Of a stretch of DNA of 41,272 nt, positions 4,421 through 41,143 are shown in pieces. Numbering within the stretch: the stretch's first letter is position 1; each line of letters opens with the position of its first letter. The notes under the pieces are model-generated. The model saw only the letters and a list, made by a program, of their open reading frames with translations, was not told the DNA's origin and did not search any database. The stretch is from Licmophora abbreviata (Eukaryota): positions 1 to 41,272 of the forward strand of contig OLMU01000948.1 in NCBI GenBank assembly GCA_900291995.1. Direction: 5' to 3'. Made by a program: the position numbers and the translations under genes.

Positions 4421-5462
4421 TCACATGATAGGACCTTCCGACCGACACCCAAAGATTCCCCACGCAAAGACACCGTGATTCCTTTGAATATCAACCCGAC
4501 TCGTTAGCGACTCCATCCACTTGGCCAAGTATGCCTCTTCGACTCCTTCGTTGAGCATATCGTCACGATGCTTTTCGATCTGATCAATCATACTCTGAAA
4601 GTAGTACTCCAAATGGGGAGAAAAGTCACTGAACGACGCGTTGTGAAAGCCGGCATCCTTGAGAAGGTCAAGATACTCACTGGGTCGTGCCATCTTAGTG
4701 GTGGCATTCCGGTCGGTAAAGTCCTTGAGGACCTTTTCGTCGGCTCCATCGGCACCCATAATGTCGGTAAAGCAGAACGACGCTCCGGGCTTCATGACGC
4801 GCTGAAGGTCTTTGAAGAGCTGAGGCTTATCGGCAGCATGACAAAGAACCTCGCATGACATGACATGAGTAAACTTGTCGGTCCATTCCTGCGGCAATCC
4901 TTCATTGAAATTGCAGAGCTTCACGTCCACCAGTTCACCGACTCCCATGCGCGCCGCTTCCGCGAGGTTCATTTTGTTCTGTTCCGGCGAAATGTTGGCT
5001 CCAATGACCTTGCACCCGAATCGTTCGGCCAGCTCATGCGACAATCCACCATGTCCGCTGCCGAGGTCCAAGACGAGACTGTCCTTGGTGACGGGACGGA
5101 ACCAGTCGAGGGTGGTGAGCAAGCGCTTGTTGGTTTCCTTGCTGCTCTCGTACACGGTATCAGTCGGCTTGACGAAGCATCCATAGTGAATATCGAATCC
5201 TCCTCCGCCCTGCGCGAGTGAAAATAGGACCGAGGGTGAGGGACGAGTGTGTCGCTCTAGGTTCAGTGTCGTCTACTGCGCGTTGCAACTAGATCTACTA
5301 GGATTTCGCGAAAAGTGGAGAGTTGAAACACATTGGACGTACCATGACGTATTTGTAAAAGATTCGAGCGTGGGCTTCGTCATACTGCTCAACAACCTTG
5401 TCGGCGACCTCGGTCTTCTCGAACTGCTGGTCTTTGAAGTCTCCAGTGGTAGAAGTTGTCAT
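4421..5462 (-). CDS. Class I SAM-dependent methyltransferase, sarcosine/dimethylglycine-MT-like group, candidate MTHB S-methyltransferase; 2 exons (5462-5343, 5209-4421), ~302 aa
   Basis: Exon 1 reads MTTSTTGDFKDQQFEKTEVADKVVEQYDEAHARIFYKYVM. A phase-0 GTACGT...CAG intron (5342-5210) joins it in frame to GGGGFDIHYG. SAM motif I VLDLGSGHGG, then NISPEQN, SCEVLCHA and MKPGASFCFTD. Substrate is inferred only. Confidence 0.85.
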
Positions 5463-5595: not shown

Positions 5596-5814
5596 TCCAC
5601 AACGCACGTACTTCTCGGCCAATCGGAATTCAGCATTGCCGTGTAGACCTCGCTGTAGAAAATGTACCACACGCAACAGATTGACTTTTCTTCCCGCCAA
5701 ACTGAGTTTGCTTCACAAAATGGCGACCTCGAAGACACCAAGACGCCACAGCAGTCCACAACTTGTACAACGTTCTACAATCAGACCAGTTTACTCCCTC
5801 CCAAGTCCTTCATC

Positions 5815-8800
5815 ATGCTTCGCGTCGAGTCTAACGCGGACATGCTCAATGCCCCTGACCACAGCAACCCTTCCAAGGTTGCGGAATTCACCGTTCCAGA
5901 ACTCGGAGGCGGCTACATCGTGGTGAACCTCTACGGCGAGTACCTGGTTTCCGTGGGTCGTGTCGATGTGGGGGTTCTCGGCGAAACCTGGACGGACGCA
6001 GAGGCCGCTCTCGACATGCTCTGCTACAGGGCCAACAATATGAACGACAAGTGCATTGTAACTGATCTCAAGGTCGGCGGCTGCGGCGTACTCCTCTACT
6101 TTTCGGCCAGCGCACTCGATACCCCCTCCAACCGACGTCGTCTGGCTTCAGCGCTTGTCAGGGAGCTCCCCTCCTTTGTCAGCACCAACATTCTATGTAT
6201 TCCTGGAGAGGGATGCACCATGACGGACATGCTCAACATCTACAAGGCGAACGAGGCTCTGACGAACTTCCCCAGGAGTCCGGCAAGAAACTCAGACGAC
6301 GAAGATGAAAACAAGAGCGACAAAGATCTGGAACGGACCACCAAAATGGTTCGCAGTACATCCTTTTCTCATGCCTCTGCTGAGTTTGAATTTCCAGTTC
6401 CATCGGCCATGATCTCTGCCGAGTCTCTCCGTGACGATCCCCTCGTCAAGGCTGCAGCGCTCAGTGTCTTCGGTTCCATTTCTACCCTTACCAAGGCAAA
6501 GCAGTGGGCCATTCCCAAGATCGTATTGATGGGATTTTCTCAACTTGCTCGAGAGTTATTCTGGCTACTTGCCAAGGAAGGCATCGATGTCTTTGTCGCT
6601 GATCCTAAGTCGGATTTCGTGGGCACGAAGATTCCCGACAAGAACATTGTCGCCTGGGACAAGGCGCCTTCGATCGGCTGCGACGTGCTAGTCTTTTGCT
6701 CGTCCGACTGTCCGGTACTATCGGAAACTATCGTAGAGTCGTTACATTGTCGCTCAGTCGTAAGTGCGTCTGACTTCTTCCTGCCTCGTGCGGAAGAGGA
6801 AGTGGAGCATGTACGCATCGCGTTGGAGAGGCAGAGCATTTTCGAGTTTGCCGACGGACTCTGTGATCTCGGAGCCATCGCCAAGGGGTACTCACTGTCC
6901 AACTCCAAGCATGCATTCTCCAAGAAAGAAATTATGGAACTTGGTGCACGTGTTATGCACAAGAGACTCCATCTCGATGGGATCGTCAAGCAGTATGACA
7001 CGGAAGACAAGCGAAAGTTCTATTCCATGGTGCTGGCGGACGAGGTGGACGAGATTGGAGGACTTAAGCTGGGCTTGGGTACCATTATCCACAATTCATC
7101 TGATAGCATGACCCAGTGGATGTGGACCCGAGCTCGAAGTCTTTGCCCTGCTTTTCGTACCTTGAATACGGCGGGTCCCAAGAAGGACATTCACTACATA
7201 GACCTTGGTGCAGGAAACGGTTCCGCCGCGCGGTGGATCTGCAAGCAAGACACACACATCCACGTTTGGTGTATCAATATCAGTCCTCAGCAAAATGCAG
7301 AGAATCGCCATTTAAGTGACGAACAAGGTCTCGGGGGACAGGTCACTGTCGAGACAACTAGCTTTGAGCAGCTGCCGTCTGAGTACAGCTCTTTGTTCGA
7401 TGGTTGCATTTCGCAAGACGCATTCATCCACGCGTTTAGCAAGCTTCATGCGTTGTCCGAAGCATTCCGTGTCACTAAGGGTGGCGGGTGGCTGATGGTG
7501 TCGGACTTGATGTGTGGCGAGAAGCAAGATACTCTGGAGCTGCAGTCTTTTGCCGAGAAGAACAACGTCCAGAACTGGGTGACGCCATCCCAGTATGTGT
7601 CGTTGGCGGAAGAGGCAGGCTGGTCAGAAGTGCAGTTTATCGACTGCACCTCACAGATTAAGGTGTCGCTGCAGCACTTACTCAACAAAATCAAAAACAT
7701 CATCTCGTCAGGAGCACACAAAGGGCTCAATCTCAAGCTCTTGCAGACACATCGACTCAGTCTCGCCAACCGTATTGGACAGATCGATCGGGGTATCTTC
7801 AAATGGGGCATTATTGCCGCACGGAGGCCATACGATGTTCTCTTTATGACGACGGCACCAGCAACGCCAGATAATCATCCCATGATGTCGTATTCAACGA
7901 ACAACATCGATGGAAGTCTCAAGTTTGGCACAGATGTCGTGGTGCTCAATATCAAGGACCAGATGCCGCGATCCAAAATCATGGAGTTGCCAAGTACGAC
8001 TCGCCTTATTGTGACCATGTCGGCAGGTCTGGATCACATCGACATGGATGCCGCCGAGGAGCGAGGCATTCGTGTTCGTCGAGCTGCTCGATACGCTATT
8101 GTCAAATCCGTTGCAGACTACCTCTTGTCCAATATTATTTTTGGACTCCGAAATGGCTACCAGAATGTCGGTAAGTGAAGAAACTGCAGTTTGCGTTTGT
8201 GCCTTTTAGGAAAATGGCTTGTAATTTGCTCACCCGCCTTGCCAACGTACCACGCTTTAAGGTGTTCCGTTTCCCGGAAAATTGTGGGACTTATCGTGGA
8301 ACTCAGACGGAGTGGATCTCGACCGAAGCAAGATCGGCTTCATTGGTATGGGTGCAATTGCCCAAGAAACATGTCGTCGTATTCGAGCATTGTCTACCGA
8401 ATGTGAGCTCGTTTACCACATTCCGGAAGGAATCAGGTCCAGGTTCGAAGAGGGGACGTATCGAATGTCGCATGTCGGCATTGCGGACTTGTACAGTACG
8501 TGCGATGTTGTCATCCCTCTGGTGCCGCTCACTCCGCAAACGACGAATCTAGTCGACTATGCCGCCTTTACTATGATGAAAAAGACTTGCATTTTCATCA
8601 ACATGGCGCGTGGTATGGTTGTGGATACGGCTGGAATGCTGCGTGCTCTCAAGGAAGGGGTCGTGCGTCATGCTATTCTTGACACGACGGAACCGGAACC
8701 GTTGCCTGAGGACCACGAGCTGTGGACAATGCGGAATTGTACGATCACTCCTCACTTCGCTACCAATACTACTTATGTCCGAAAGGAGCTAGTTGAGGAC

Positions 8801-9526
8801 ATTCCAAACGAGATTGAAGATACGCTAGACGAACGAGGTATTCTGCGTCTTGAAGAAGAGCGCTTGCGAAAGGAACTTAGTGAGGCGTACCGCATAACTC
8901 GCGATTTTGGCATGGATGAGCTTGTGTGGAACCATATTTCCGTTCTGTTGTCGGACGGAAGCTACCTCATCACACCAGGAAGCCGTATGTTTGATGATAT
9001 TGCGCCGCAGGACCTGGTCAAGAGTTCCGGTAACGTTACGGCCGACATAATTCATGATGCGGTCTACAAGGCTCGGGACGACGTCAAGGCGATTGTCCAC
9101 CTGCATACCCCTGCAACGGTGGCAATCTCGTGTTTAGAGATGGGATTTGTTCCGCTTGCTCAGGAAGCCGCTCCCTTCGTCGGCCGCGTTGTGCGCCATC
9201 CCTGGCACGGTGTTTCCAACGATTGGGAGGAGCAGGCTCTGCTCGGCGATGCCGTGAAGAGCAAGAACGTGAACACGCTACTAATGGAAAACCACGGATT
9301 CTGCACGTTCGGAAAGACTCTAGGCGAGGCGTGGGTGCTGGCTTACTACTTCGATAAGGCATGTCAGACCCAGCTGAACTGCCTCCAGACCGGTGTAAAG
9401 ATCAACTTCCCCGACGAGAAGGTCCTCCAGCACGCAGCAGAACAGTCCGTTCTTCCAGAGTTTCTGCCCGGTAATTGTGAATGGGAAGCTCTCCGCAAAA
9501 TGTTGACACGAAAATCGCGTCGTTAG
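5815..9526 (+). CDS. Four-domain fusion: degenerate Glu/Leu/Phe/Val dehydrogenase-like + SAM methyltransferase + D-isomer 2-hydroxyacid dehydrogenase + class II aldolase/adducin; 2 exons (5815-8170, 8262-9526), ~1206 aa
   Basis: ORFs 5662..8178 and 8282..9526 are joined in frame by a phase-1 intron G|GTAAGT...TTTAAG|GT (8171-8261), giving QNVGVPFPGKLWD. Motifs: ANNMNDK..LKVGGCG and VLMGFSQLA (ELFV-like); IDLGAGNG, NISPQQN, QDAFIH (MT); SAGLDHID, GFIGMGAIA, INMARG, EPEP, TPHFA (2-HADH); WNHIS, HLHTP, LMENHG (aldolase II). Start could be the upstream in-frame ATG at 5662. Confidence 0.88.
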
Positions 9527-19114: not shown

Positions 19115-21346
19115 CTAGTCATCTTTCTCAAGCGCCTCCAAATGTGGGAACGCCTTGAATGCACCGACTGCCGTAATGGTCACAATCAGCCCCATCGAAA
19201 CGAAAATATGGTTTAGCAAAGTTTCGATACCACCAAGGCCGCACCACGTAATGAGAACGTCGCCGACCGAGCGACCAAGATTCCCAGCCTCGGTTGCCAG
19301 AAGTCCAACATTGAGGAATCCCCTAGCCCAACTCGTTGGTATTGTTTTCGACAGCAAACTCATATTCGGCCCCTCTAGAGCGTTTGTACCGACGAAGATT
19401 ATTACACTGGCGGCAATGTATTGTAGTATCGAGTAGTGGTCGGCACTTCCATAGTTGACAATACACCACACGCCAACCGCCATCACAAGAAGGGTCACCA
19501 TGATGAGTTCCCGGTCGTCGTGACGCCGACTAAAGTAAGCCACCATTAGGTTTGCCGGAAACATGAGCAGGCCCAAGATTGCTAGATAAATTCCAGTTTC
19601 GGTTGCACCCCAATCAAAATAGAATCCCGTCAGTGTTGCAGTTGAGCTCAGACAGACCTCCAGCACCATCTTGAGAACAAAGCAGATGAGTAACGTCGCC
19701 ATCACGGGGATGTTTTTCCATAGCGGCGGCGAGGCTGATTCTGCCCGATCGACTCCGTTGGTCGTTGACAACAGCGCCTTCCTTTCGCCGACGAGCTCGA
19801 CGTCCATATCCTTTGGCGCTGCGTTGTGTGTAGGAGGATCTTGAAAGTAAGCGACTAAAGCGACAAGGTAAATCATCCAGAGGGTAAACATGAGCCAGCC
19901 TGAAGCGTTCTCGACACTCAAGTACGTATCGCCGGGAGGAAGAAAGTCTAGCAGGGCCGCCAGAGCAGGACCCGCTGCCATACCGAGCGAGCCCGCAGTA
20001 ACGAAAGCCGCTGACGCTGCTGTCCGCTCATCCCTTGAGTACGAGTCTGCAATATATCGTCGATTGATTGACCGACAGCTACCGAAGCCGATCAGAAGAC
20101 GACCGATTAAAACCAACGTAAAACTTTGGAATGGAAGTCCGAGAGCGTACAATACGTTCCCAAGCAGTGCACTGGAAGCCGCGAAGAACAGTGCAGCCTT
20201 GTAGGAGTAACTAGTCCACCAGCTGTAGAGAAACGTGGATGCCAAAGCGGCGATCGGCGTCATCCCAATGACCAGTCCAGCAAGAGTCTCGTTACCCCCC
20301 AGCTTGGCAGCGTAGGCACCACTCGTGGGCGCCGCTATGTAGTAATTCGTCAAGAATAGAAATGTACTCATCAAGTTGAGAAAGTTTGATAGACGCGACG
20401 GCTTGGAGCGCGGCAGCGGTGCCATATCCTCTAGAAGAAACGTATCACTCGGCTGGTGCTCCAGAACCATGGCTGGGGCGGCCAAGAAACTGACCAAGTT
20501 GGACGACTCGTACAGGCGACGTCGCGCCGCGTCAATCCGAAATAAGACAGGCTCTTCATCGGGTGAAGCACTGGCTTGCCAGTCTTCAAGGTTGTCCAGC
20601 GTCGTTGTTCGAGTGTGTCCTTTGCTAGAGCTCGATAGAGCCTGTTTCCATTCATCGTCCAGTGACGGACCCACCAAATCGGGCGCAGTGTTATTTCTTC
20701 GGTGCATGCCGCCGCCGATAACAATATCTGAACCACTATTCATCTGCAGAGCGTCTTCGCACTTTCGTAGTTCTGCCAATGAGTGTTGCAGGGTCGTAAC
20801 GAGTGCCCCGATGCCCTCGTAGTGGAGTAGCTGTTTTAAGTGTGAGTCTTGCTGGCTCTCAAAGTAATTCTCTGATAGATACTGACCCGAGAGCTTGTTT
20901 GCCGTGTAAATTTTGTCGTGCTTCTTTAGAATCTTTCGTACTCCCGTCACCGTTAGTTCGACGAAGCGAATGAGGCGTACCACATCGTCTCCGATGTCTC
21001 GGTAAGCTCGTAAAAGCTCCCCAATCTGAGCACGTACAGGTACCATGGTCTCCGCTCCATTCTGAATTCCAGTTGCGACGAGCTCTTTGACTTCTGAGAC
21101 ACTGGTGCGCGAATCTTGCCTCAACAAGGATATCTTCGACGCAAGTCTGCCTTGTTCCTGAAGAAAGAACAAGACGGCTTTTTCTATGTCGATGTCAAGA
21201 AGATGAATGAATTCTCGCTCGCGAAACGCATCCGACTCGTCCGCGTTTTGGAACTCGAGAATCCTCTTCAACCTTGTGTAATCCAGATAGTACTCCTTCC
21301 ATGGACCGTATTCTAATGCCATAAGGCGCTTTCCAAAGTGCACCAT
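19115..21346 (-). CDS. SPX-MFS protein (vacuolar phosphate transporter, VPT/PHT5-like), copy 1, intact
   Basis: MVHFGKRL..YLDYTRLKR and TGVRKILKKHDK SPX motifs, then a multi-TM MFS domain (TNYYIAAPT, IGRLLIGFGS, INRRYIAD, EGPNMSLLSK). Confidence 0.9.
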   Translation of the reverse strand: MVHFGKRLMALEYGPWKEYYLDYTRLKRILEFQNADESDAFREREFIHLLDIDIEKAVLFFLQEQGRLASKISLLRQDSRTSVSEVKELVATGIQNGAETMVPVRAQIGELLRAYRDIGDDVVRLIRFVELTVTGVRKILKKHDKIYTANKLSGQYLSENYFESQQDSHLKQLLHYEGIGALVTTLQHSLAELRKCEDALQMNSGSDIVIGGGMHRRNNTAPDLVGPSLDDEWKQALSSSSKGHTRTTTLDNLEDWQASASPDEEPVLFRIDAARRRLYESSNLVSFLAAPAMVLEHQPSDTFLLEDMAPLPRSKPSRLSNFLNLMSTFLFLTNYYIAAPTSGAYAAKLGGNETLAGLVIGMTPIAALASTFLYSWWTSYSYKAALFFAASSALLGNVLYALGLPFQSFTLVLIGRLLIGFGSCRSINRRYIADSYSRDERTAASAAFVTAGSLGMAAGPALAALLDFLPPGDTYLSVENASGWLMFTLWMIYLVALVAYFQDPPTHNAAPKDMDVELVGERKALLSTTNGVDRAESASPPLWKNIPVMATLLICFVLKMVLEVCLSSTATLTGFYFDWGATETGIYLAILGLLMFPANLMVAYFSRRHDDRELIMVTLLVMAVGVWCIVNYGSADHYSILQYIAASVIIFVGTNALEGPNMSLLSKTIPTSWARGFLNVGLLATEAGNLGRSVGDVLITWCGLGGIETLLNHIFVSMGLIVTITAVGAFKAFPHLEALEKDD

Positions 21347-21761
21347 GGGAATCGGATATTTTACCGTGTTGTCCAAAGTATCTTCATTGTGATTCTCGCC
21401 GCGGCGAATCCGCGAGCGAATCTTTGAAAAAGATTTCGCGCGACGACAGTGTGGTCTGGCCGCCCGATGACAACTCGACTGCCTCAACTTTACTCGACTT
21501 TCTCACTCATCAAATCTCTCTCACTCGATAGCCCGACAAAAGTGTTGCTAGATGACTTCGTACGAATAGAACGCCTCCAGGATAATAACTCCAATCTCCT
21601 GTTTTAGTGTTTGCTACTTGCTACTGGCAGTATCGATTGCACAGCGGGAGCAGAACGCTGTCCGAACACTGACTTCCGAGCGAAAAAAATGTAACAGGCC
21701 ATAGCACGGCGGAAGCTGAGTGAAAGCAAATGTAGCAGAGCTGTTTCTTCAATCTCCGTTC

Positions 21762-23992
21762 CTAGTCGTCCTTATCGTCTTGCGGTTCCAACGATGGATA
21801 CACTTCGTACGTTGCCACAACAGTCACTCCCACAAGTATTCCCAGAGATATAAACATGTGATTCAGCAACTTTCCGATACCGCTCAAGCCGCACCAAGTT
21901 ATGAACACATCGCCTGTCGCCCGTCCAAGGGTACCTGCTTCAGTGGATAACAGGCCCACATTGAAAAGACCCTTCGCCCAACTCTTTGGTATCGTCTTGG
22001 ACAACAACGACATATTGGGCCCCTCCACTGCGTTCGCGCCGACAAAGACGACAATCCCAAAGAATATATACTGAGCCAGCGAGTATGAGTCGCATGCCCG
22101 TAGTCCACGATTCCCCACAATCCGACAAGCAACAAGATCAGAGTGTATATGATGAGCTCACGGTCTTCGTATATCCTACTGTAGTAGGCAACCAATAGAT
22201 TGGCAGGGAACATGAGAAGTCCAAGCACAGCCAAGTACAGTCCGGATGCCTGGGGCCCCCAGTTGAAGTAGAACGACGTCAGCGTTGCGGTGGAGCTCAG
22301 TGCACATTCCAATGCAAGCTTGATGACAAAGTAGACCAAAAGCGTTGCGATCACGGGAATATTCTGCCAGAGGGGTCGCGACACGCGTTCAATTTGCTCC
22401 TGCCTACCACCGGTCGACAACAAGCCCATGCTTTCTCCGGTTAGTTCAATATCGGCAGTCTCCGTTCTAGATTCCATCAATTCATCGTGTTTGGGCGGAT
22501 CTTGAAAGAAAACTACCAATGCGAAAAGGTATACAAGCCAGACCATAGACATGATCCATCCAGAGGCGTTTTCGGCACTCCAGTATGTGCTGCCTGATGG
22601 TGACAAGTCGAGCAATGCAGCCATCGCCGGTCCTGCGCTCATGCCGAGTGCACCGGCCGTCACGAATGCCGCTGACGCTGCCGTACGGTCCTGCCTCGAG
22701 AATGAATCAGCAATGTATCGACGGTTGATCGATCGGGCGCTACCGAACCCATTCAGGAGCCGACCGATTGTGACCAACGTGAGGCTGCGATACGGAAGGC
22801 CGAGTGCATAGAGAATGTTTCCAATAACGGAACAAGCCGATGCGAAGACCAATGCCGCCTTATAGGAGCGACTCGTCCACCAGCTATATAGTATTGTAGA
22901 CACTAGTGCGGCAATCGGGGTCATGCCAATAATGATGCCGGACAATGCTTCGTGACCGCCCAGTTTGGCGGCGTACGCTCCACTTGTGGGAGCGACGATA
23001 TAGTAGTTCGTCATGTACAAGAACGTACTCAGGAGATTCAACAAGCTGGAAATGGATGATACTTCCGGACGACAATAAGGCAGAATCTCCGATAAATCAT
23101 CCTCACTAGTACTTTGGTCCATCATGGCGGAAGCCGCCAGCAAGCTGACGAAACCGGAAGATTCGCGCAGGCGTCGTCGAGCCGCATCAATCTTGAATAG
23201 CACGGACTCTGCAAGTGCACTCACGTTTTCGTCCCAATATTCTGGACCTTCTGTGCTCGCTTTTCGGCTCCGACTGGGCCCTGGTGTAAGTCTAACTGGC
23301 TCAAGTGACGACGGGCCGACCAAGTTTGGTTCCGTCATTGTCCGACGATGTCGATTGACGCCGGCTGCGTCTTTCGGGACGCTGTTGAACAAGATGTGTT
23401 CAATTACCTTCAGTTCCAAGAAAGCCTCCTGTAGTGATGCGACAAGGGCACCAACACCTTCATAATGGAAAAGCTGTCTCAGATGCGAGTCCTCAGTATT
23501 GTGAAAGTGATCCGACAGATATCGATCCAATAGCTTGTTTCCTTTGAAGCGTTTGTCATGTTTCTTGAGGATCTTTCGCAAACCTGTTACTGTCAGCTCG
23601 ACAAAACGAACCAGATGGACGATAGTCTCTCCGACATCCTTGTAGGAGTGCGCCAGCTCCTGTAGCCGCCTTCGAACTGCCGCTTGCTGGGCGTCATTGC
23701 TTCTGTTCCCAACAACATCCTGTGCATCCATTGCGCACCTACGTTCGTCATCTCGCAAGACCGAGAGCGTCTTGGCAATATGTCCTTGTATTTGTAGAAA
23801 GAACAAGACTGATTTTTCAATTTCTTGGTTCAGTTGCCTCTCAAACTCACGTTCCCGGCGCGCAGCAGGTAGCTTGGCCGTAATGCTACCGTCTGTGTTT
23901 TCGAGAACTCTTTTTAGTCGGCCGTAATCTAGATAGGAGGACTGCCATGGCTCATGCTGAAGCGCCAAGAGACGCTTTCCGAACTGTACCAT
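21762..23992 (-). CDS. SPX-MFS protein, tandem copy 2, with an apparent 1-nt frameshift at ~22097-22099 (sequencing error or pseudogenising lesion)
   Basis: MVQFGKRL..YLDYGRLKR..TGLRKILKKHDK. Homology to copy 1 switches from ORF 21899..23992 to ORF 21762..22118 at DYG/ACDSYS. Confidence 0.85.
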
Positions 23993-32733: not shown

Positions 32734-35690
32734 CTAGGCTTGGCAGCTCCAGCAAATGTCGTCTCGATCGTTGCCTGCTGGCCCGCTCGACTGCACCGAG
32801 GTCTTATTCACCGTGTACTGTATCGCATTCACGGCTGGTTTGGTTCGAAGGTAGTACATACCCGTCTATGGTTTCGCATTGATAGCGACGCGACGAGATG
32901 AGACGATGATGAGAATCTGCGCTCCTGTTCTGCTTTACGGTCACCCGACACGCGAACGTACCTTAAGACCCTTTTTCCAAGCGTAAAAGTGCATCGATGT
33001 CAATCGCTCGACCGTTGGATCGGCAATGAAAAGATTTAGGCTCTGGCTTTGATCTACAAATCTCCCTCGATCGGCAGCCATGTCAATAATGTCTTTCATT
33101 TTGATCTCCCACACCGTCCTGTACAGCTCCTTAAGTCGTTTGGGAATACATTCGATATTAGCTACCGATCCTCCATCGCGCATCAGCTGGTTCCGGACGT
33201 CAGGGGTCCAAAGACCTCGGTCCGTCAAATCTTGGAGCAGGTGAGGATTAGCCATGATGAACTCGCCCGCTTTGACGCGACGCAGATAGAGGTTCGAGCT
33301 AAAGGGTTCGAAGCACTCGTTGACCCCCAGAATCTGAGACGTCGACGCCGTTGGCATAGGAGCGACGAGCAGCGAGTTCCGGAGCCCTCCGATCTTGATG
33401 CGTTCTCGTAGTCGATCCCAGTCGTATCCCCCATTCTTGTATGTAGATGCGTAGTGCTGAGGCGGATTCAACGTGACACCCCCTCGGCACTGTCGTTGAC
33501 TGGGAGTCTCATCGTCGGATATTCCCCAAAGATCAAACTGCAATTTTCCTTCGCTGGCAGGACTACCAGCAAATGTGTCATATGGACCTTTCATCTCCGC
33601 TAGCTCAAGACTAGCCTCGAGAGCTGCATGGTATATCGTTTCAAAGATGGCTTCATTTAATAGCTTTGCTTCGTTCGACGTAAACGGCAAGCCTAGCCTT
33701 AGAAACGCATCCGCGAGTCCAGATACCCCAAGCCCAATTGGTCGGTGGCGACGATTCGAACTTTCCGCCTCAGGTACGGGGTAGCGATTGACGTCAATCA
33801 CTTTGTTAAGATTTCGGGTCAATATCTTGGTGGCGCAATGCAAAGCGTCATGGTCAAAATATGCCATCCCGGACGACGGGTTAGCAGAACCAAAAGGCCC
33901 GCGACGCGATACAACAAATCTCGATAGACAGCTGAGCAGCGCGAAGCAAGAAAAGGTGAGCAACACCGACCTCGCATTTTGTGCGCCAGCAACGTCAACA
34001 CAGTCTCAGTTGAACTTACAGGCTCGCGAGATTGCAGACGGCGACCTCGTCTCGGGATGTGTACTGAATGATTTCTGTGCAAAGATTGCTGCTCTGGATC
34101 GTCCCGAGATTCATCTGATTGCTTTTGGCATTGCATGCGTCCTTATATAGCATATAGGGAGTCCCCGTTTCAATCTGCGCGTCGAGAATGGCGCCCCAGA
34201 CGTCACGGGCTCGTACTTGTCGAACGAAACGCCCGTCCTGCTCGTACTGCTCATACAGATCCCGAAACTCTTCTCCATATTTCTCAGACAAACCGGGACA
34301 TTGGTGGGGACACATAAGGCTCCACATGCCGTCCTCTTGAACCCTTTGCATAAACAAATCGGGGATGAACAAACCATAGAATAGATCCCTCGCCCTCTGT
34401 TCGTCTTTCCCATGATTCTTTTTGAGATTCAATACATCAATAATGTCAGCGTGCCACGGTTCGACGTAGACTGCAAATGCTCCAGGACGCTTTCCACCGC
34501 CTTGGTCGACATATCTAGAAGTAACATCGAATACGCGGAGCATCGGGACCAGTCCGTTGGAAACCCCTCTTGTCCCTTTGATAATCGTCCCTCGGGCACG
34601 AATGTTGTGCACCGAAAGACCGATCCCGCCGGCGGCCTTGGAAATCACGGCACAGCGCTTCAGTGTATCGTAAATACCATTGATGGAATCTTCCGACATT
34701 TGCACCAAGAAGCAACTACTAAGCTGAGGGTGTGTCGTTCCAGAATGAAAGAGCGTTGGGCTGGCATGCGTAAAGTATCCCTGACTCATCATGTCATATG
34801 TCTCAAATGCGGCCTCCAACTGTGCGTCCTCTGATGTGCTATCATCAGGGTTACAACAATGAATTCCAAGGGCGACTCTCATAAACAGATATTGCGGTCG
34901 TTCAACTGGAGTTCCATCGTCGGTCTTGAGGAGATAAGCTCGCTCCAACGTCTTGTACCCAAAGTAGGTCATGTTCATATCTCGTTCGTGCCGAATACGT
35001 TCATCGATTTCCGGGCCTCGTCTGCTTACTAGTTCGGCTAGTCGGGAGTGAATGAAGCCTTTCGCATTGTCGCACAATATCTCCATCGCGCTCGAAAAGG
35101 TATCAGGAGTCGCCTTTCTCAACTGAGAAATGCATATTCGTGCCGCTAACCGTGCGTAATCTGGATGTTGTGTCGACATGGACGCCGACGTCTCGGCTGC
35201 CAAGACATCGATCTCCCCCGTTGTCACATTAGGATAAATGCCACGCAGTACCGATTCCGCCAGTCCCTTTACCGATAAGAAACGACTGTCCAAGCCGTCG
35301 GACAGCTTTTGCAGCCTGGACACGATCTGTGCAACGAGGAAAGAGGAAAGACGTTTCAATACATTGAGCAAGGCTATCCTTAGTGGACAACAGAAAAAAT
35401 TGTGCTGTCCCGTTTTTTACCTTGACTTCGTTGAGAGCTTCTCGTCGCCCATCGCGCTTGGTAATAAGGAAGTTGCCAGTACGTCTCCCCTGCTCTGCAT
35501 CAAGAATCCCTTCGGGCCCATTTAACAACGAAGAGCCCTCGGATACTTCTGAGATCTGCAAAGGCGAAACTGATCCTCCCCTCGTCAAATGGGGCCCGGA
35601 ATCTGAAGGTGACGGTGCCGTAGCATCTGCTGAACGAACACGAACTGCTAGCACAAGCAAAAAGCGAAGAAAAAGGTATCCGATCGGCAT
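32734..35690 (-). CDS. RNR1: Class Ia ribonucleoside-diphosphate reductase large subunit with an N-terminal signal-like extension; 4 exons (35690-35421, 35326-34020, 33931-32962, 32865-32734)
   Basis: ATP cone [66 protein letters not shown] and a C-terminal CWSCQA redox pair. Introns preserve the frame. Confidence 0.95.
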
Positions 35691-37027: not shown

Positions 37028-39553
37028 CTAGGGTTCGTTTCTTACTACTTCTACTTCCAGGGCGTCTTTGCCGACTGGAGCCGTGCTACGTGCATCGCCT
37101 TCGTTCGACGGCAGGCAATTCTCGAGTACAACTTCCTTCATTACTCGGTATGGCGCGGTTCTCTCAGTCCATAGCTCAAACTGACCCACGCCCTGCTCCC
37201 ACAACATTTCCGATCCCCGAACGACCTCACATCCTGCCTTTTCGGCTTGTAATAGCAGCTTCGTATGGAAAGGTTTATAGTTCACATCAAAGACAATGGG
37301 CAGAGAGGCTCTTTCGGATGAAATCATCCAGTCTGGTAGCTCAAACTCTGCGGCTGCCGGCAATGTACTTATTACGACACGCACAGCACTGCCTGACTCT
37401 CGCAGTACACTTGCCAGTGACTGGTCGTTTTCACTTTCAAGGTCCGACACGACGGTTCCCCCGAAACTTTCCGCCAGACCAGCTGCTTTCGCCGGAGTGC
37501 GATTGAAGTAGATCTGGTCCAATCCCAGCTTTTCGGCGGCAAAGGCTGCTGCTCTCGCCGTTCCACCAGCTCCCAGAATTAGCGCACAGTCACCGGGAGA
37601 CGTCAGTCCAAGCTTGCGTTTCAACGGATTGTAGATCCCTTTCCAGTCGGTGTTGTCGCCGTAGATAACGCGCTCGAAATTCTCGGTGCCGACTTCCTCT
37701 CTTACTACCAACGTGTTGACGCTCCCAATTTCCTTGGCAGCGTGGCTCATGACGTCCACGAATGGAATGATAGACTGCTTGTGGGGAATCGTTACACTGC
37801 ACCCACCGAAATTGTGTGCTCTGAAGAAGTCTGATTCGACAAACTCCTTGACGGTTTCAACGTCGGCGCGGTAGTACTCATGTGGCAGCCGCGCCGCTGC
37901 AAAAGCCGAGCCATGCATCTGGGGACTCACAGAGTAGGCAATATTGTGTCCGAGAATCGCGTATCGTCTCGGTTGCATGATCTTTGTCAGCAGGCGTGTC
38001 GTCATGATCTCGTTCGATGTCATCTGGCCAGGCGCTGCCTTGAAAGGCAGAGACTCATGCGTAACGGGGGTAAAGGGGATATTTATCACTCGCGAAAACT
38101 GGCCAACTTCGCCTAGAATGAGCGAAATGTTCGGAATCACCGGATCGCCGTCTTCTGCCGCCAAACTAGAAGTAATGATAGCAGCTTCGTACGCCATGCG
38201 ATCTTGCTCATCGTCGGTGATCGTAAGGACCACTTTCGCACCATGTGCTCGACCGTTCAGTGTGCACTGCTGAAAGAGCACGACGGCGTCTTCGAGAGTG
38301 ACCACTTCTCCCACTACATGGTGACTGCCCAGTATCTGGCTCGAATATCGCGTCTCTGCGAGATGAAGAAGATCACTCGTTTTCTTATAGTCCCAGGCAC
38401 TCTCTACGTCCAAAACCTCCACCCCTGATCTTAGTCCCCACTTCAGAAGATCAAACATTTGTTCAATTCCGGCTTGGTCGTCGGGATATGTTCCTGCTTG
38501 GTTCATTGTTCGCACGGTGTACACCGTAGGCATCGCGTCATCGATAATCTTGCCTCCAAACGGAAGCCCAGGAGCTCTAACAGCAAAGGGACGGCAAAAC
38601 CTACGCAGTAGCTGTTGTCCATAGATCAAGTCAAAACGGTTGTCCCTGCAGTCAAGAAGGTCCGCTCGGTACTCCATCGCATCGACATCGCGGCACATTT
38701 GTTGAACGTATGGCTCGACTTGCGTCACGTCGGGGAAGCTGAGCGAAAGGAAGAATGTGTGCTTTCCCATGGTGAGATGAGCTGTATTGGTAGTTTGTGT
38801 CTCGTCGCCCGGAATGGCTGGCTGTAGAGTTGCTCGCGCTACCAACCGACTGAGCTCCCATTGTATGTGCGACCAATCGTTCGACTCAGAATCAGTTGGC
38901 AATCCCTCGCCACGGATACAAAGCTCGTAATCTGAATAGCTAACAAGCACGTCCTCTTCCAGATTCATTTTGAGCTTTTTATCCGATTCGCTCATAACGG
39001 CCTCGTCTGGGTGTACATTCACAAAGATACTCAGCAACCCGGCGTCGTAGAGCGCTTTGGCGTATTTCGAGTGGTCGTCGCCACCTGCAAAGTCGACAAC
39101 AAGAACGCTCGGGTATTTGACCTTTGAGGTCTCAATGTCGCGCAACAGTGCGTCAACAGATTCGACATCGGATACGTTAATCACTCCTTCAGTGTTCCCT
39201 GATGCATCCAACTCGTTTCTCAGGGATTCTGCCAATCGAGGGATCTCTTGTCCAGAACCCGAGACTCCCAGCAAGACGATAGGCTTGGAGTAGCGACTGG
39301 ACTGAAACATGTTTCTTTCTAAACCGTCCTCAATAGCTTTTGACGCAGTTGACATTCTTCGAGAGTCGATTTTTGGTTCGGATCGACCGATTTGATCATT
39401 TCGAGCTGAACGAGGATTGGAACTAAGTTTCCCACCAAATCTGAGCGGAAAACCGGAGAAGGCTCGGACTTGCGTCGACAGCAGAGAAATGAACAGCACA
39501 AGGGTCGCCAACAAAGACCGCATTCGTCTCGATAAAACCATTGTCACGTGCAT
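37028..39553 (-). CDS. Plastid-targeted type I 3-dehydroquinate dehydratase / shikimate dehydrogenase with a degenerate shikimate-kinase-like N-terminal region
   Basis: Signal ending VRA|FS. DHQase motifs [31 protein letters not shown] motifs [50 protein letters not shown]. Start may be the ATG at 39553 or 39541. Confidence 0.9.
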
Positions 39554-39830: not shown

Positions 39831-41143
39831 ATGGCTTCCCTTATCCCTCCTAAAGACGGAATCAACTTTGAAGAGCTTCCCTGGAACTTGAACGTCCCGG
39901 AAGAGCACAGCTACGTCCACGTTACGACCAAGTCTGACTGGACCAGCGAACACTACGATCCCGCCTCCGATACTGGTTTGGTCTTGAGCAGCGTAAAGAA
40001 GTATTCGACGTCCCCGCTTCCACTTTATCCATCGACTACATCGCTAAACTACGGAACGACAATTTGGGAAGGCCTCAAGTGTTTCCGTGACAAGGATGGA
40101 CAAGCTGTCGTCTTTCGACCTGATCGAAACTTCGCTCGTTTCGCCAAGGGCGCCGAAGCGATGTGTCTGCCCGTCGTTCCCAAGGAGCTGTTTCTGCGTG
40201 GTATCCAAACGGCCGTCCAAGCCAATGCACATCTAATCCCCCCGCAAGGAGCTGGGATGAAACTCTATGTGCGACCCATGCTGTTGGGGTCAGGACAGCA
40301 GCTGGGATTGTATCCAAGGTATGTAATGTATGCATGCTTGTGCTTGGGTGGCGACAAATAGACGCCAGGTCCATTCACAGCTTGTACTCATCGTCCCAAT
40401 GTCCCTAATCGCTTCGTCGAAGTCCCGAGTTCAGCTTGCTCTTCTTTGTGAGTCCGACTGGGAACTACTTCAAGGGAAACGCGAGTGGATTGAACCTCCA
40501 TCTCGAGACGAAACGATCGCGCGCGGCCGTTGGTGGGCTCGGAAACGTCAAGTGCAGTGGAAACTATGCGATTGCCATGAAGCCTTTGATGGATGCTAAA
40601 AAGCAAAAATTCCACGACAATCTCTTCCTCGAGTTGGAGACGTACGAGACTGGAAAGCTTCATCATGCAGTCCTCCAGGAGATGAGCGCCGCTAACGTGT
40701 TTCTCGTGCTCAAGTCGGGAGAGATTGTAACTCCAAGCTTGGACCGTGGTACAATTCTCCCCGGCGTCACACGAGAGTCTGTTGTTTCTTTGATTGAAAA
40801 GTATGCTGGAGAACTAAAGTCGGCAATGGCGGAAAGTACCGGCAAACCAGATGCAACCGTATCGGTGTCGGAACGAGACGTCACAGTCGGCGAATTGAAA
40901 GATGCTACGGAGGTTTTTGCGACAGGAACAGCCGCCGAGCTAGTCCACATTGCACGTTTGGCTACTGGTGAAGGCGAAGAAGATTTTGATGTATCCTTCC
41001 CTCATGGACAAGAGTCGCCTGGCCCCGTGACGACCAGGCTGTTGGAGCTGATCCGAGATGTCATGATGAGAAACGTAACAAGTGACGAGACGGACTCCTG
41101 GTTGCGCGATCCATTTGCCTCTCCTTCTGAGTTCTGCATGTAG
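39831..41143 (+). CDS. BCAT: Branched-chain amino acid aminotransferase (class IV PLP); 2 exons (39831-40318, 40423-41143)
   Basis: LNYGTTIWEGLK, FRPDRN, LYVRP, PLP lysine in NVKCSGNY, EMSAANVF, ILPGVTR, EVFATGTAA. Phase-2 intron 40319-40422. Confidence 0.92.

Follow-up and report, generated by a model that had tools for sequence, protein, structure and literature searches.

A class II aldolase/adducin-fold domain fused to a methyltransferase and a reductase in a diatom protein: a candidate decarboxylase of dimethylsulfoniopropionate synthesis

A four-domain fusion gene and its divergent neighbour

The DNA examined here, a stretch of 41,272 nt from Licmophora abbreviata contig OLMU01000948.1 (the window, to whose positions all coordinates refer), carries a two-exon gene encoding a fusion protein, the C-terminal domain of which has the class II aldolase/adducin fold and is the subject of this analysis. 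From its GC content (∼0.51), its short spliceosomal introns and its best named relatives (Nitzschia, Pseudo-nitzschia and other diatoms) we infer that the window resembles diatom nuclear DNA. The domains of the fusion protein follow each other in the order (i) a degenerate Leu/Phe-dehydrogenase-like domain, (ii) a TpMMT-type S-adenosylmethionine (SAM)-dependent methyltransferase, (iii) a D-2-hydroxyacid dehydrogenase, and (iv) the aldolase-fold domain, which has no gene of its own. A preliminary description of this DNA had suggested that the latter might be a eukaryotic, DsyD-like enzyme decarboxylating 4-dimethylsulfonio-2-hydroxybutyrate (DMSHB) to dimethylsulfoniopropionate (DMSP).

The coordinates of all features are listed in Table 1. 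An 838-codon open frame (5662-8178) stops just within the GTAAGT donor of the single intron. The splice model of the fusion gene is based on homology: the spliced product contains one stop, at its end, the sequence across the junction (QNVG/VPFPG) is that of the homologue consensus, and the gene is colinear with an intron-less metagenome relative (locus L001, 88% identical). Depending on the start codon used, the fusion protein is predicted to be 1,257 or ∼1,206 residues long. The shorter length is offered because the homologue consensus begins at the residue-52 Met of the window protein (5815) and residues 1-68 are predicted to be disordered, with a predicted local distance difference test score (pLDDT) below 50 in the AlphaFold2 (AF2) model.

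A second gene lies head-to-head with the fusion gene, 200 bp upstream of it. It encodes a single-domain methyltransferase of 302 residues in two exons, and its spliced junction matches the intron-less orthologues in two metagenome loci (L004 and L005).

Table 1. Features of the fusion gene and of the adjoining methyltransferase gene
Feature	Position	Strand	Basis or remark
Fusion gene, exon 1	5662..8170	+	First ATG 5662; GT donor at 8171; homologue starts match second Met at 5815
Fusion gene, phase-1 intron, 91 bp, GTAAGT...AG	8171..8261	+	Spliced product, homologue junction, colinearity with L001
Fusion gene, exon 2	8262..9526	+	Stop codon 9524-9526
Degenerate Leu/Phe-dehydrogenase-like (ELFV-fold) domain	5866..6978	+	Alignment to P0049, AF2/Foldseek match to 7vid
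TpMMT-type SAM-dependent methyltransferase domain	6979..7776	+	PF08241 and related families
D-2-hydroxyacid dehydrogenase, substrate-binding part (resumes past the intron)	7777..8170	+	PF00389, E 1.9e-9, 37.8 bits
D-2-hydroxyacid dehydrogenase, NAD(P)-binding part and linker	8262..8860	+	PF02826, E 2.9e-41, 141.2 bits
Class II aldolase/adducin-fold domain	8861..9523	+	PF00596, motifs, AF2, structure comparison
WNHIS	8927..8941	+	Conserved His/Asn
IIHDAVY	9047..9067	+	Translation
HLHTP, two of three metal-binding histidines	9098..9112	+	38/38 long-form proteins; aligns with HLH of NovR
LMENHG, third metal-binding histidine	9281..9298	+	Long-form alignment, NovR alignment
Divergent intergenic region between the start codons	5463..5661	.	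Reaches 5814 if the fusion starts at the second Met
Neighbouring DsyG-like (DSYE-like) methyltransferase, exon 1	5343..5462	-	ATG 5462; intron 5210-5342
Neighbouring DsyG-like methyltransferase, exon 2	4421..5209	-	Stop 4421-4423

Distribution of the fusion architecture

A homologue search identified 102 proteins (designated by P numbers), 74 of which carry Aldolase_II; the methyltransferase, 2-Hacid_dh_C and Aldolase_II domains occur together in 65 of the 102. The 28 proteins beyond the 74 are shorter gene calls (459-867 residues), many of them on short contigs. Among the named sources are Nitzschia, Cyclotella, Skeletonema, Seminavis, Amphora, Thalassiosira and Chromera. The long form of ∼1,200 aa, with the N-terminal domain, was found in Nitzschia inconspicua (P0016) and in a Bacillariaceae metagenome-assembled genome (MAG), and Pseudo-nitzschia is represented by partial gene calls covering the N-terminal and methyltransferase parts. 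The short form of ∼870-910 aa, without the N-terminal domain, is present in Cyclotella, Skeletonema, a Thalassiosira sp., Seminavis and Amphora, and the Chromera velia form has 839 aa. Other combinations are a methyltransferase-aldolase protein without the reductase (P0058, a complete MMETSP transcript) and a reductase-aldolase protein (P0115).

Relatives of the aldolase-fold domain occur in unrelated fusions too. In P0135 (763 aa) and P0158 (1121 aa) they are joined to TauD/TfdA-type Fe/2-oxoglutarate dioxygenase domains, an arrangement reminiscent of TqaL and TqaM, in which an oxygenase is paired with a decarboxylase of the aldolase fold. The top match in a representative library, P0104 (475 aa), carries two tandem aldolase-fold copies that are 55% identical to that of the window.

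Reductase and N-terminal domains

The window protein was aligned with 37 long-form homologues (38 rows in total), and the methyltransferase motif, the reductase motifs and the HxH and NHG motifs of the aldolase-fold domain are conserved in every row. The reductase part belongs to the D-isomer-specific 2-hydroxyacid dehydrogenases by its matches to PF02826 and PF00389 and by its conserved Arg, Glu/Asp and His motifs, which we take to be the catalytic triad. Its closest matches are glyoxylate/hydroxypyruvate reductases, and its family comprises D-specific, i.e. (R)-forming, 2-hydroxyacid dehydrogenases. A DTTEPEPLP motif common to the diatom reductases and that of a Gynuella locus described below was considered as a subfamily signature and dropped, because human-type glyoxylate/hydroxypyruvate reductases carry nearly the same motif.

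The N-terminal domain (residues ∼69-439) gave no match in Pfam and PDB sequence searches. A homologue that has PF00208 (P0049) aligns with it through its own N-terminus over 353 residues (23% identity, E 6e-21), and the AF2 model of the window domain matches leucine and phenylalanine dehydrogenases (leucine dehydrogenase 7vid, Foldseek E 4.9e-15). The fold is thus that of the Glu/Leu/Phe/Val dehydrogenases, but the residues expected of this family are missing. The loop lysine, presumably the catalytic residue of amino-acid dehydrogenases, is kept in a single row out of 37, and a single row out of 38 has the glycine-rich nucleotide loop, this being P0049 both times; because of this loss, the domain is probably a catalytically dead relic. 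P0049 (1131 aa), the sole long form that keeps both elements and scores on PF00208, may be a form with all four domains active.

The aldolase-fold domain and its putative metal site

The aldolase-fold domain comprises 221 residues and contains no stops. The preliminary description located it correctly, except that the start given there, 8860, is one base off the reading frame, which begins at 8861; the motifs WNHIS, IIHDAVY, HLHTP and LMENHG that it listed are all present in the translation of 8861-9523. The domain matches Pfam family PF00596 (Aldolase_II) with E 1.2e-32 and 113.8 bits (cut-off 22.2). The match spans profile positions 2-183 of 183 and, with such a score, is far beyond chance. 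PF02826 and PF00596 are the only Pfam families on exon 2. An AF2 model of the domain, obtained with a 106-row alignment, has a mean pLDDT of 97.7.

The histidines expected to bind the metal, H80, H82 and H145, are intact, as had been claimed: HxH and NHG are found in 38 of 38 long-form proteins, and their histidines are present in at least 90% of 106 wider relatives of the domain. In a HMMER alignment to NovR, residues N58, H65, H80, H82, Q101 and H145 are identical. Neither these six positions nor H25 vary among 34 fusion proteins of the long and the short form, whose identity to the window protein falls to 47% over the compared part. In TqaM, residues H74, N123 and Q166 bind the carboxylate and hydroxyl of the substrate, according to a passage of a review (PMC13351049). 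These residues probably correspond to H25, N58 and Q101 of the diatom domain, an equivalence drawn by analogy. By the same analogy with TqaM H74, the His and Asn of WNHIS are a possible carboxylate-binding site.

Two positions of the domain vary. The residue before NHG (9287-9289) is Arg in 83 of the 106 relatives, Glu in the long diatom fusions and His, Asn or Tyr in the short ones. Position H116 (9206-9208) is Glu in 67 of the 106 relatives, mostly His in the long diatom fusions, and Asp in the short ones. The site may have been remodelled near the metal. The Arg-to-Glu change before NHG was also considered as a sign of a cationic substrate; this was dropped in view of the Arg retained in Chromera, the Lys of P0049 and the His, Asn or Tyr of the short fusions.

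Kinship of the aldolase-fold domain

Kinship was judged by hidden Markov model (HMM) scores, PDB E-values and structural Z-scores, in place of a labelled domain tree. Among NCBIfam models the nearest are PRK07044, "aldolase II superfamily protein" (148.3 bits, cut-off 207), and PRK06661 (128 bits, cut-off 339); both are uncharacterised and both matches lie below the cut-off, so that the domain belongs to neither. The MtnB model (TIGR03328) matches no more than 30 residues and scores 23.5 bits where its cut-off is 137.05, and the FucA model TIGR01086 reaches 25.5 bits against 400.25, with FucA models ranging from 25.5 to 38.6 bits. A protein atlas returned generic class II aldolase clusters only.

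The results of the PDB sequence search and of the comparison of the AF2 model with known structures are given in Table 2. With 4xxf set aside, enzymes of the NovR/CloR/TqaM type are the closest characterised ones by both sequence and structure; the iron oxygenases exceed FucA by ∼4-5 Z units, and Foldseek gives a similar ranking of chains. On the evidence of sequence and model, the domain is a member of the adducin-like branch of the superfamily, and the characterised enzymes nearest to it, again setting 4xxf aside, are all O2-using non-haem iron proteins.

Table 2. Relatives of the aldolase-fold domain by sequence (PDB search) and by structure (VIA-align of the AF2 model, best 50 rows; rows within one Z unit are ties)
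Protein or PDB entry	E-value	Z-score
Adducin (sequence: adducin-1 head)	9e-25 (top match)	23.9
3ocr, unknown function	1e-19	27.7 (ties with NovR)
NovR	2.4e-11 (closest named enzyme apart from adducin and 3ocr)	28.0 (root-mean-square deviation 1.7 over 216 residues)
4xxf, deposited as fuculose-1-phosphate aldolase	3.9e-11	25.7
Pyruvic oxime dioxygenase (sequence: 8ix6, 8iqa, 8il8, by titles)	7.4e-10 to 3.2e-9	26.6-27.0
TqaM	4.6e-8	26.2-26.4
HMPDdc 2z7b	2.9e-6	24.8
FucA (sequence: other FucA entries)	4.5e-5 or weaker	∼22-23
YgbL		23.2
AraD		20.5
RhaD		∼18.5

MtnB, FucA, AraD and RhaD share the superfamily and the three-histidine site with the diatom domain, but the HMM scores of the first two are far too low, and FucA, AraD and RhaD reach Z-scores of only 18-23 compared to 26-28 for the iron oxygenases. 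A grouping with MtnB or with the sugar-phosphate aldolases, named in the preliminary description as the outcome that would speak against its proposal, was seen neither in the HMM scores nor in the E-values or Z-scores; the absence of MtnB from the 50 rows of the structure comparison carries no weight by itself. It is distinctly unlikely that an unrelated substrate of another pathway undergoes a conventional reaction of the family in this domain, such as an aldol cleavage, epimerisation, dehydration or non-oxidative decarboxylation that depends on Zn, Mn or Co and proceeds without O2. Such a role would agree with the three histidines, which are common to the whole superfamily, and with the existence of non-oxidative decarboxylases in the fold. 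It would also agree with the Z-scores of HMPDdc and YgbL and with weak NCBIfam matches to 3-oxo-tetronate 4-phosphate decarboxylase (48 bits) and 3,4-dihydroxyphthalate decarboxylase (29 bits). However, the scores of these candidates are lower than those of NovR, pyruvic oxime dioxygenase and TqaM for sequence as well as structure, and a sugar-phosphate substrate would be ill-suited to a methyltransferase and a 2-ketoacid reductase as partners.

Adducin heads, together with 3ocr and the PRK07044 and PRK06661 proteins, are the closest relatives by sequence and have extra C-terminal helices in common with the diatom domain. They differ from it in that the NCBIfam matches stay below cut-off and in that most carry Arg before NHG, in place of the Glu or His/Asn/Tyr of the fusions. 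Adducin is a cytoskeletal protein, and an adducin-like domain without catalytic function, which would oligomerise or act as a scaffold for the methyltransferase and the reductase, would suit this top match, the homotetrameric state in which TqaM, of the same fold, functions, and the apparent loss of catalysis in the N-terminal domain of the same fusion. We regard a scaffold as very unlikely, since the three histidines and N58, H65 and Q101, which align with NovR, are invariant in fusion proteins of as little as 47% identity, whereas the dead N-terminal domain has visibly lost its key residues and illustrates what decay looks like in this fusion.

The statement that DsyD shares the class II aldolase fold proved to be wrong: DsyD is a PF04115, ureidoglycolate-lyase-like domain, as described in a passage of Wang et al. 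(2024; PMC11306096). The diatom domain does not match PF04115, and BLASTP against the DsyD domain of Gynuella gave E 12. Because the families differ (PF04115 versus PF00596) and sequence similarity is lacking, "DsyD-like" fails as a statement of homology, and descent from DsyD is practically ruled out; nothing was found to favour it, and what is shared is merely the idea of a decarboxylase fused to or adjoining a DsyG-type methyltransferase. The other part of the claim, that the domain might decarboxylate DMSHB, has gained circumstantial support from the fusion, the gene adjacency and the kinships. The further statement that the class II aldolase fold includes decarboxylases is borne out by TqaM and HMPDdc (2z7b).

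The two methyltransferases of the locus

Single-domain diatom methyltransferases of ∼300 aa share 36-40% identity with the fused methyltransferase domain over 99-100% of its length. A search with one of these, from Cyclotella atomus (P0261), retrieved a tight diatom family that includes a Thalassiosira pseudonana "methyl transferase-like protein" (P0330) with 76% identity. P0330 is probably TpMMT, the enzyme with which T. pseudonana makes DMSP and the id of which is Tp23128 in the paper; this candidate identification was made by sequence and not by accession match, because P0330 is 32% identical to the Gynuella DsyG domain, compared to 31% reported between TpMMT and DsyG (PMC11306096), and because the family fits the described single-domain homologues at ∼70% identity. 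As defined in the relevant passage of Li et al. (2022; PMC10989797), the TpMMT family comprises single-domain proteins of at least 70% identity. The fused domain lies outside it, being 42% identical to P0330 (195 aa, E 2e-51) and part of a multi-domain protein.

The neighbouring gene product is only 28-31% identical to the TpMMT family; with the DsyG half of a DsyGD-type protein from Gynuella it shares 40% identity (253 aa, E 6e-61). DSYE is defined as a single-domain algal protein that is DsyG-like, with a cut of E 1e-55 and at least 70% coverage in the passage concerned (PMC11306096). The neighbour falls within this definition when compared with the Gynuella MAG protein, with E-values on a different scale from those of the paper. 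It is called DSYE-like here because of that definition, and is probably a member of DSYE clade E. That clade is described in a passage of the same paper as exclusive to diatoms, including Nitzschia inconspicua and Pseudo-nitzschia (PMC11306096), both of which are among the best named relatives of the window fusion. The TpMMT and DsyG/DSYE families have been reported, in passages of two papers, to act as 4-methylthio-2-hydroxybutyrate (MTHB) S-methyltransferases (PMC11306096, PMC10989797).

A maximum-likelihood tree was computed from 35 methyltransferase rows (LG+C20+F+G4, midpoint root, no unrelated methyltransferase as outgroup, three long-branch rows). It separates two groups, each with 100/100 support: DsyG with the neighbouring gene and its orthologues, and the methyltransferase domains of all fusion proteins with the TpMMT family. 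In the second group, a clade with 100/100 support unites the TpMMT family with the short-fusion domains. It is nested within the other fusion domains, among which, going outwards, Chromera and P0058 come first, P0049 next and the long diatom forms last. With a root on the DsyG side, the fusion domains would be bracketed by the assayed MTHB S-methyltransferases, and TpMMT would look like a single-domain offshoot of a fusion protein.

The best NCBIfam match of every methyltransferase considered here is a sarcosine/dimethylglycine N-methyltransferase, far below cut-off. This match has no weight for N-methylation, because the Gynuella DsyG domain has the same best match.

Conserved gene adjacency

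When 185,579 prokaryotic species genomes were scanned with the aligned sequences of the neighbouring gene product and three orthologues, a single locus was confirmed, in a Gynuella sp. MAG. It encodes a protein of 494 residues with PF08241 at 76-175 and PF04115 at 302-455, followed by a 345-residue D-2-hydroxyacid dehydrogenase. This agrees with the DsyGD architecture and the adjoining "predicted MTOB reductase" (MTOB, 4-methylthio-2-oxobutyrate) described in a passage of Wang et al. (2024; PMC11306096). When the parts are compared, Gynuella has DsyG, DsyD and a D-2-hydroxyacid dehydrogenase, and the diatom has a DsyG-like gene, a TpMMT-type domain, a reductase domain and the aldolase-fold domain. 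The decarboxylase is the one part without a counterpart on either side, and by analogy the aldolase-fold domain would stand where DsyD does in Gynuella. DsyD (known from Gynuella sunshinyii and some Oscillatoriales) and the diatom domain are therefore alike in the proposed reaction, in the coupling to a DsyG/TpMMT-type methyltransferase and in the adjoining D-2-hydroxyacid dehydrogenase, but their folds are unrelated and the resemblance is one of analogy, not of membership.

The neighbourhood of the fusion gene was examined by tblastn in 55 loci (designated by L numbers) from a metagenome scan, with loci at least 97% identical in the aldolase part merged. Five of the eight long-form loci had at least 2 kb of upstream sequence, and in four of these five a DsyG-like orthologue, 63-83% identical, lies directly upstream (L001 and L003, head-to-head; L004 and L005, in tandem). 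Counting the window, the DsyG-like neighbour and the long fusion are paired in five of six distinct lineages, and the adjacency has been kept despite the change of orientation. For the short form, 10 of 13 loci with at least 2 kb upstream have an opposite-strand TpMMT-like gene, 58-77% identical to P0261, ∼0.8-1.8 kb upstream in head-to-head orientation, or seven of nine lineages after merging of near-identical loci. In Thalassiosira sp. AJA248-18, the NCBI locus tags ACHAXR_013457 and _013456 place a TpMMT-like gene next to the short fusion, and in Seminavis robusta the TpMMT-like protein and the short fusion both come from contigs of 98,698 bp.

The loci would represent two modules, one of DSYE with the long fusion and one of TpMMT with the short fusion, which agrees with a remark in Wang et al. 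(2024; PMC11306096) that diatoms with DSYE are without TpMMT. The long-form adjacency is not open to the objection that it stems from a local duplication, because the two methyltransferases are only 23-31% identical.

The gene neighbourhoods of stand-alone relatives of the aldolase-fold domain, examined in 11 other loci, were uninformative for the decarboxylase question. In one of them (L051:5019-12242) a bacterial relative, 31% identical, is found amid coenzyme A (CoA)-transferases, an AMP-binding acyl-CoA ligase and a GCV_T-family aminomethyltransferase, enzyme types that presumably resemble those of DMSP or betaine demethylation pathways.

Discussion

The oxidative decarboxylation of DMSHB to DMSP is said to go back to primary work by Gage et al., and the algal DMSP pathway reportedly passes through D-MTHB (Summers et al. 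1998). As the final step of the transamination route, the reaction is termed the oxidative decarboxylation of a 2-hydroxy acid in the corresponding passage of Li et al. (2022; PMC10989797). The algal enzyme had been said in the preliminary description to await firm identification; this accords with Wang et al. (2024; PMC11306096), where a passage states that knowledge "is still lacking", and with a June 2026 review, in which DsyD is the sole enzyme listed for the reaction (PMC13360808). Within the literature searched, no paper ties DMSHB or DMSP to a class II aldolase/adducin domain or describes a multi-domain DMSP enzyme of diatoms.

Two of the nearest iron enzymes, NovR/CloR and TqaM, catalyse reactions of this type. 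CloR/NovR have a three-histidine iron site and carry out two O2-dependent oxidative decarboxylations, the second of which converts a mandelate, an alpha-hydroxy acid, into a benzoate one carbon shorter (passage in PMC13111500). TqaM combines the class II aldolase fold with three histidines in a homotetramer and consumes one O2 per substrate; according to the review passages used, it decarboxylates only (2R)-alpha-hydroxy acids, with the metal chelated by the carboxylate and the 2-hydroxyl, and its variants take varied alpha-hydroxy acids (PMC13351049). NovR (PDB 9ryg) and the diatom domain share the fold, the aligned N, H, HxH, Q and NHG residues and the type of reaction needed for DMSHB. They differ in that identity is ∼25%, that NovR is bacterial, stands alone, has a prenylated aromatic keto/hydroxy acid as its substrate and carries out a first step on the 2-oxo acid as well, and that the diatom domain is fused behind a methyltransferase and a reductase. 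The fungal TqaM (PDB 9m09, 9m0a, 9n43) is alike in its class II aldolase fold and three histidines, and unlike in its identity of ∼20% and in what it acts on, an alpha-hydroxy-beta-amino acid.

We propose that the fusion protein may be a multi-domain enzyme of the methionine-transamination route to DMSP in diatoms, and that its aldolase-fold domain is a candidate DMSHB decarboxylase, which like NovR/CloR and TqaM would decarboxylate its substrate oxidatively with mononuclear Fe(II) and O2. We assign this reading a probability of about 0.45. What makes the candidate credible is the set of gene neighbours and the fact that two of the nearest iron enzymes, NovR/CloR and TqaM, decarboxylate alpha-hydroxy acids, which is the type of reaction that turns DMSHB into DMSP. 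The analysis shows the fold, the metal ligands, the conserved order of domains, the gene adjacency and the kinships; from these we infer that the metal is iron, that O2 is used, what the substrate is, and what the reductase and methyltransferase domains do. In the proposed mechanism, the carboxylate and the 2-hydroxyl of (R)-DMSHB would chelate the three-histidine metal, O2-driven removal of the C2 hydrogen would lead to a 2-oxo or peroxide intermediate, and loss of CO2 would yield DMSP. Earlier in the pathway, the D-2-hydroxyacid dehydrogenase domain of the same polypeptide would reduce MTOB to (R)-MTHB, and the TpMMT-type domain, the adjoining DsyG-like enzyme, or both, would S-methylate MTHB to DMSHB; the N-terminal Leu/Phe-dehydrogenase-like domain would be a catalytically dead relic. 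The domain could then be regarded as an aldolase-fold enzyme akin to NovR and TqaM in a context new for them, a eukaryotic fusion, and as analogous and not homologous to DsyD.

A larger scheme is advanced more tentatively and may well not hold: a two-gene DMSP module of diatoms, in which an MTHB S-methyltransferase (DSYE-like or TpMMT-like) is encoded head-to-head with a fusion supplying the MTOB reductase and a DMSHB oxidative decarboxylase of non-DsyD fold, and which would derive from an ancestral P0049-like form, a single polypeptide covering the four steps that lead from methionine to DMSP.

An enzyme of the same Fe/O2 oxidative decarboxylase class might instead act on another 2-hydroxy acid delivered by the adjoining reductase, or in another order of steps. 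MTHB could be converted to 3-methylthiopropionate before S-methylation, or the product could be another methylated osmolyte or sulfonium compound. Fold and chemistry are blind to the side chain of the substrate, as the breadth of the TqaM variants illustrates, the second methyltransferase leaves space for a second methylation target, and the sarcosine/dimethylglycine model could be taken to hint at one. Set against this is the relationship of both methyltransferases to families of MTHB S-methyltransferases (42% identity of the fused domain to the probable TpMMT, 40% of the neighbour to the DsyG domain), along with the lack of weight of the sarcosine match, and we consider a different substrate or order unlikely.

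Several points weigh against a DMSHB decarboxylase, the case for which is circumstantial throughout. The best sequence match of the domain is adducin (E 9e-25), which keeps the histidines and, to our knowledge, is not an enzyme. The proposal does not account for a second methyltransferase at the locus. The pairing of genes also has exceptions: one long-form locus (L007) has no DsyG-like neighbour in 7.6 kb, and three short-form loci (L020, L021 and L033), which represent two distinct lineages, are without a TpMMT-like neighbour. Moreover, the short-form adjacency may simply be left over from a local duplication, given that the methyltransferase domain of the short fusion and the TpMMT-like gene are each other's closest paralogues, with 46-56% identity. 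The logic of fusion has failed once already in the DMSP pathway, since a Porphyra fusion of a DsyG-like protein with an aspartate-decarboxylase-family domain, which "seemed a good candidate", had neither activity; two DsyD-like algal proteins were likewise inactive, and diatoms are described as accumulating little DMSP (passages in Wang et al., 2024; PMC11306096).

Proteins of this kind have been noticed before. Li et al. (2022; PMC10989797) mention larger, multi-domain "TpMMT-like" diatom proteins, such as T. oceanica EJK59074 and F. solaris GAX25165, with extra domains and a methyltransferase domain less than 50% identical to TpMMT. In the passage concerned these were set aside as being of unknown function (PMC10989797), which is a further point of caution. 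By description, and not by accession match, they probably belong to the fusion family. The family is present in databases already and has apparently been noted in print as unexplained; its functional reading appears to be new.

DMSP is a climate-relevant sulfur compound, and in its algal pathway genes are known for the methyltransferase step only. If the proposal is correct, the diatom pathway would gain its last step, and probably the reductase too, environmental surveys would gain new marker genes, and the recently recognised aldolase-fold iron oxygenases would gain a third natural class of substrate.

Other genes in the window

Four further genes or gene groups were recognised. Two tandem genes on the minus strand (19115-21484 and 21899-23989) encode transporters with an SPX domain and a major-facilitator part. 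On the same strand, the large subunit of ribonucleotide reductase is encoded in two open reading frames (32941-35368), presumably separated by an intron near 33964-34015, and a gene at 37028-39550 specifies a bifunctional 3-dehydroquinase/shikimate dehydrogenase with an N-terminal extension of ∼268 residues that has no Pfam match. Some class IV aminotransferases interconvert methionine and its 2-oxo acid. An open reading frame of that class (PF01063, E 2.9e-15) is located on the plus strand at 40436-41140, ∼31 kb from the fusion gene, which is too far for linkage.

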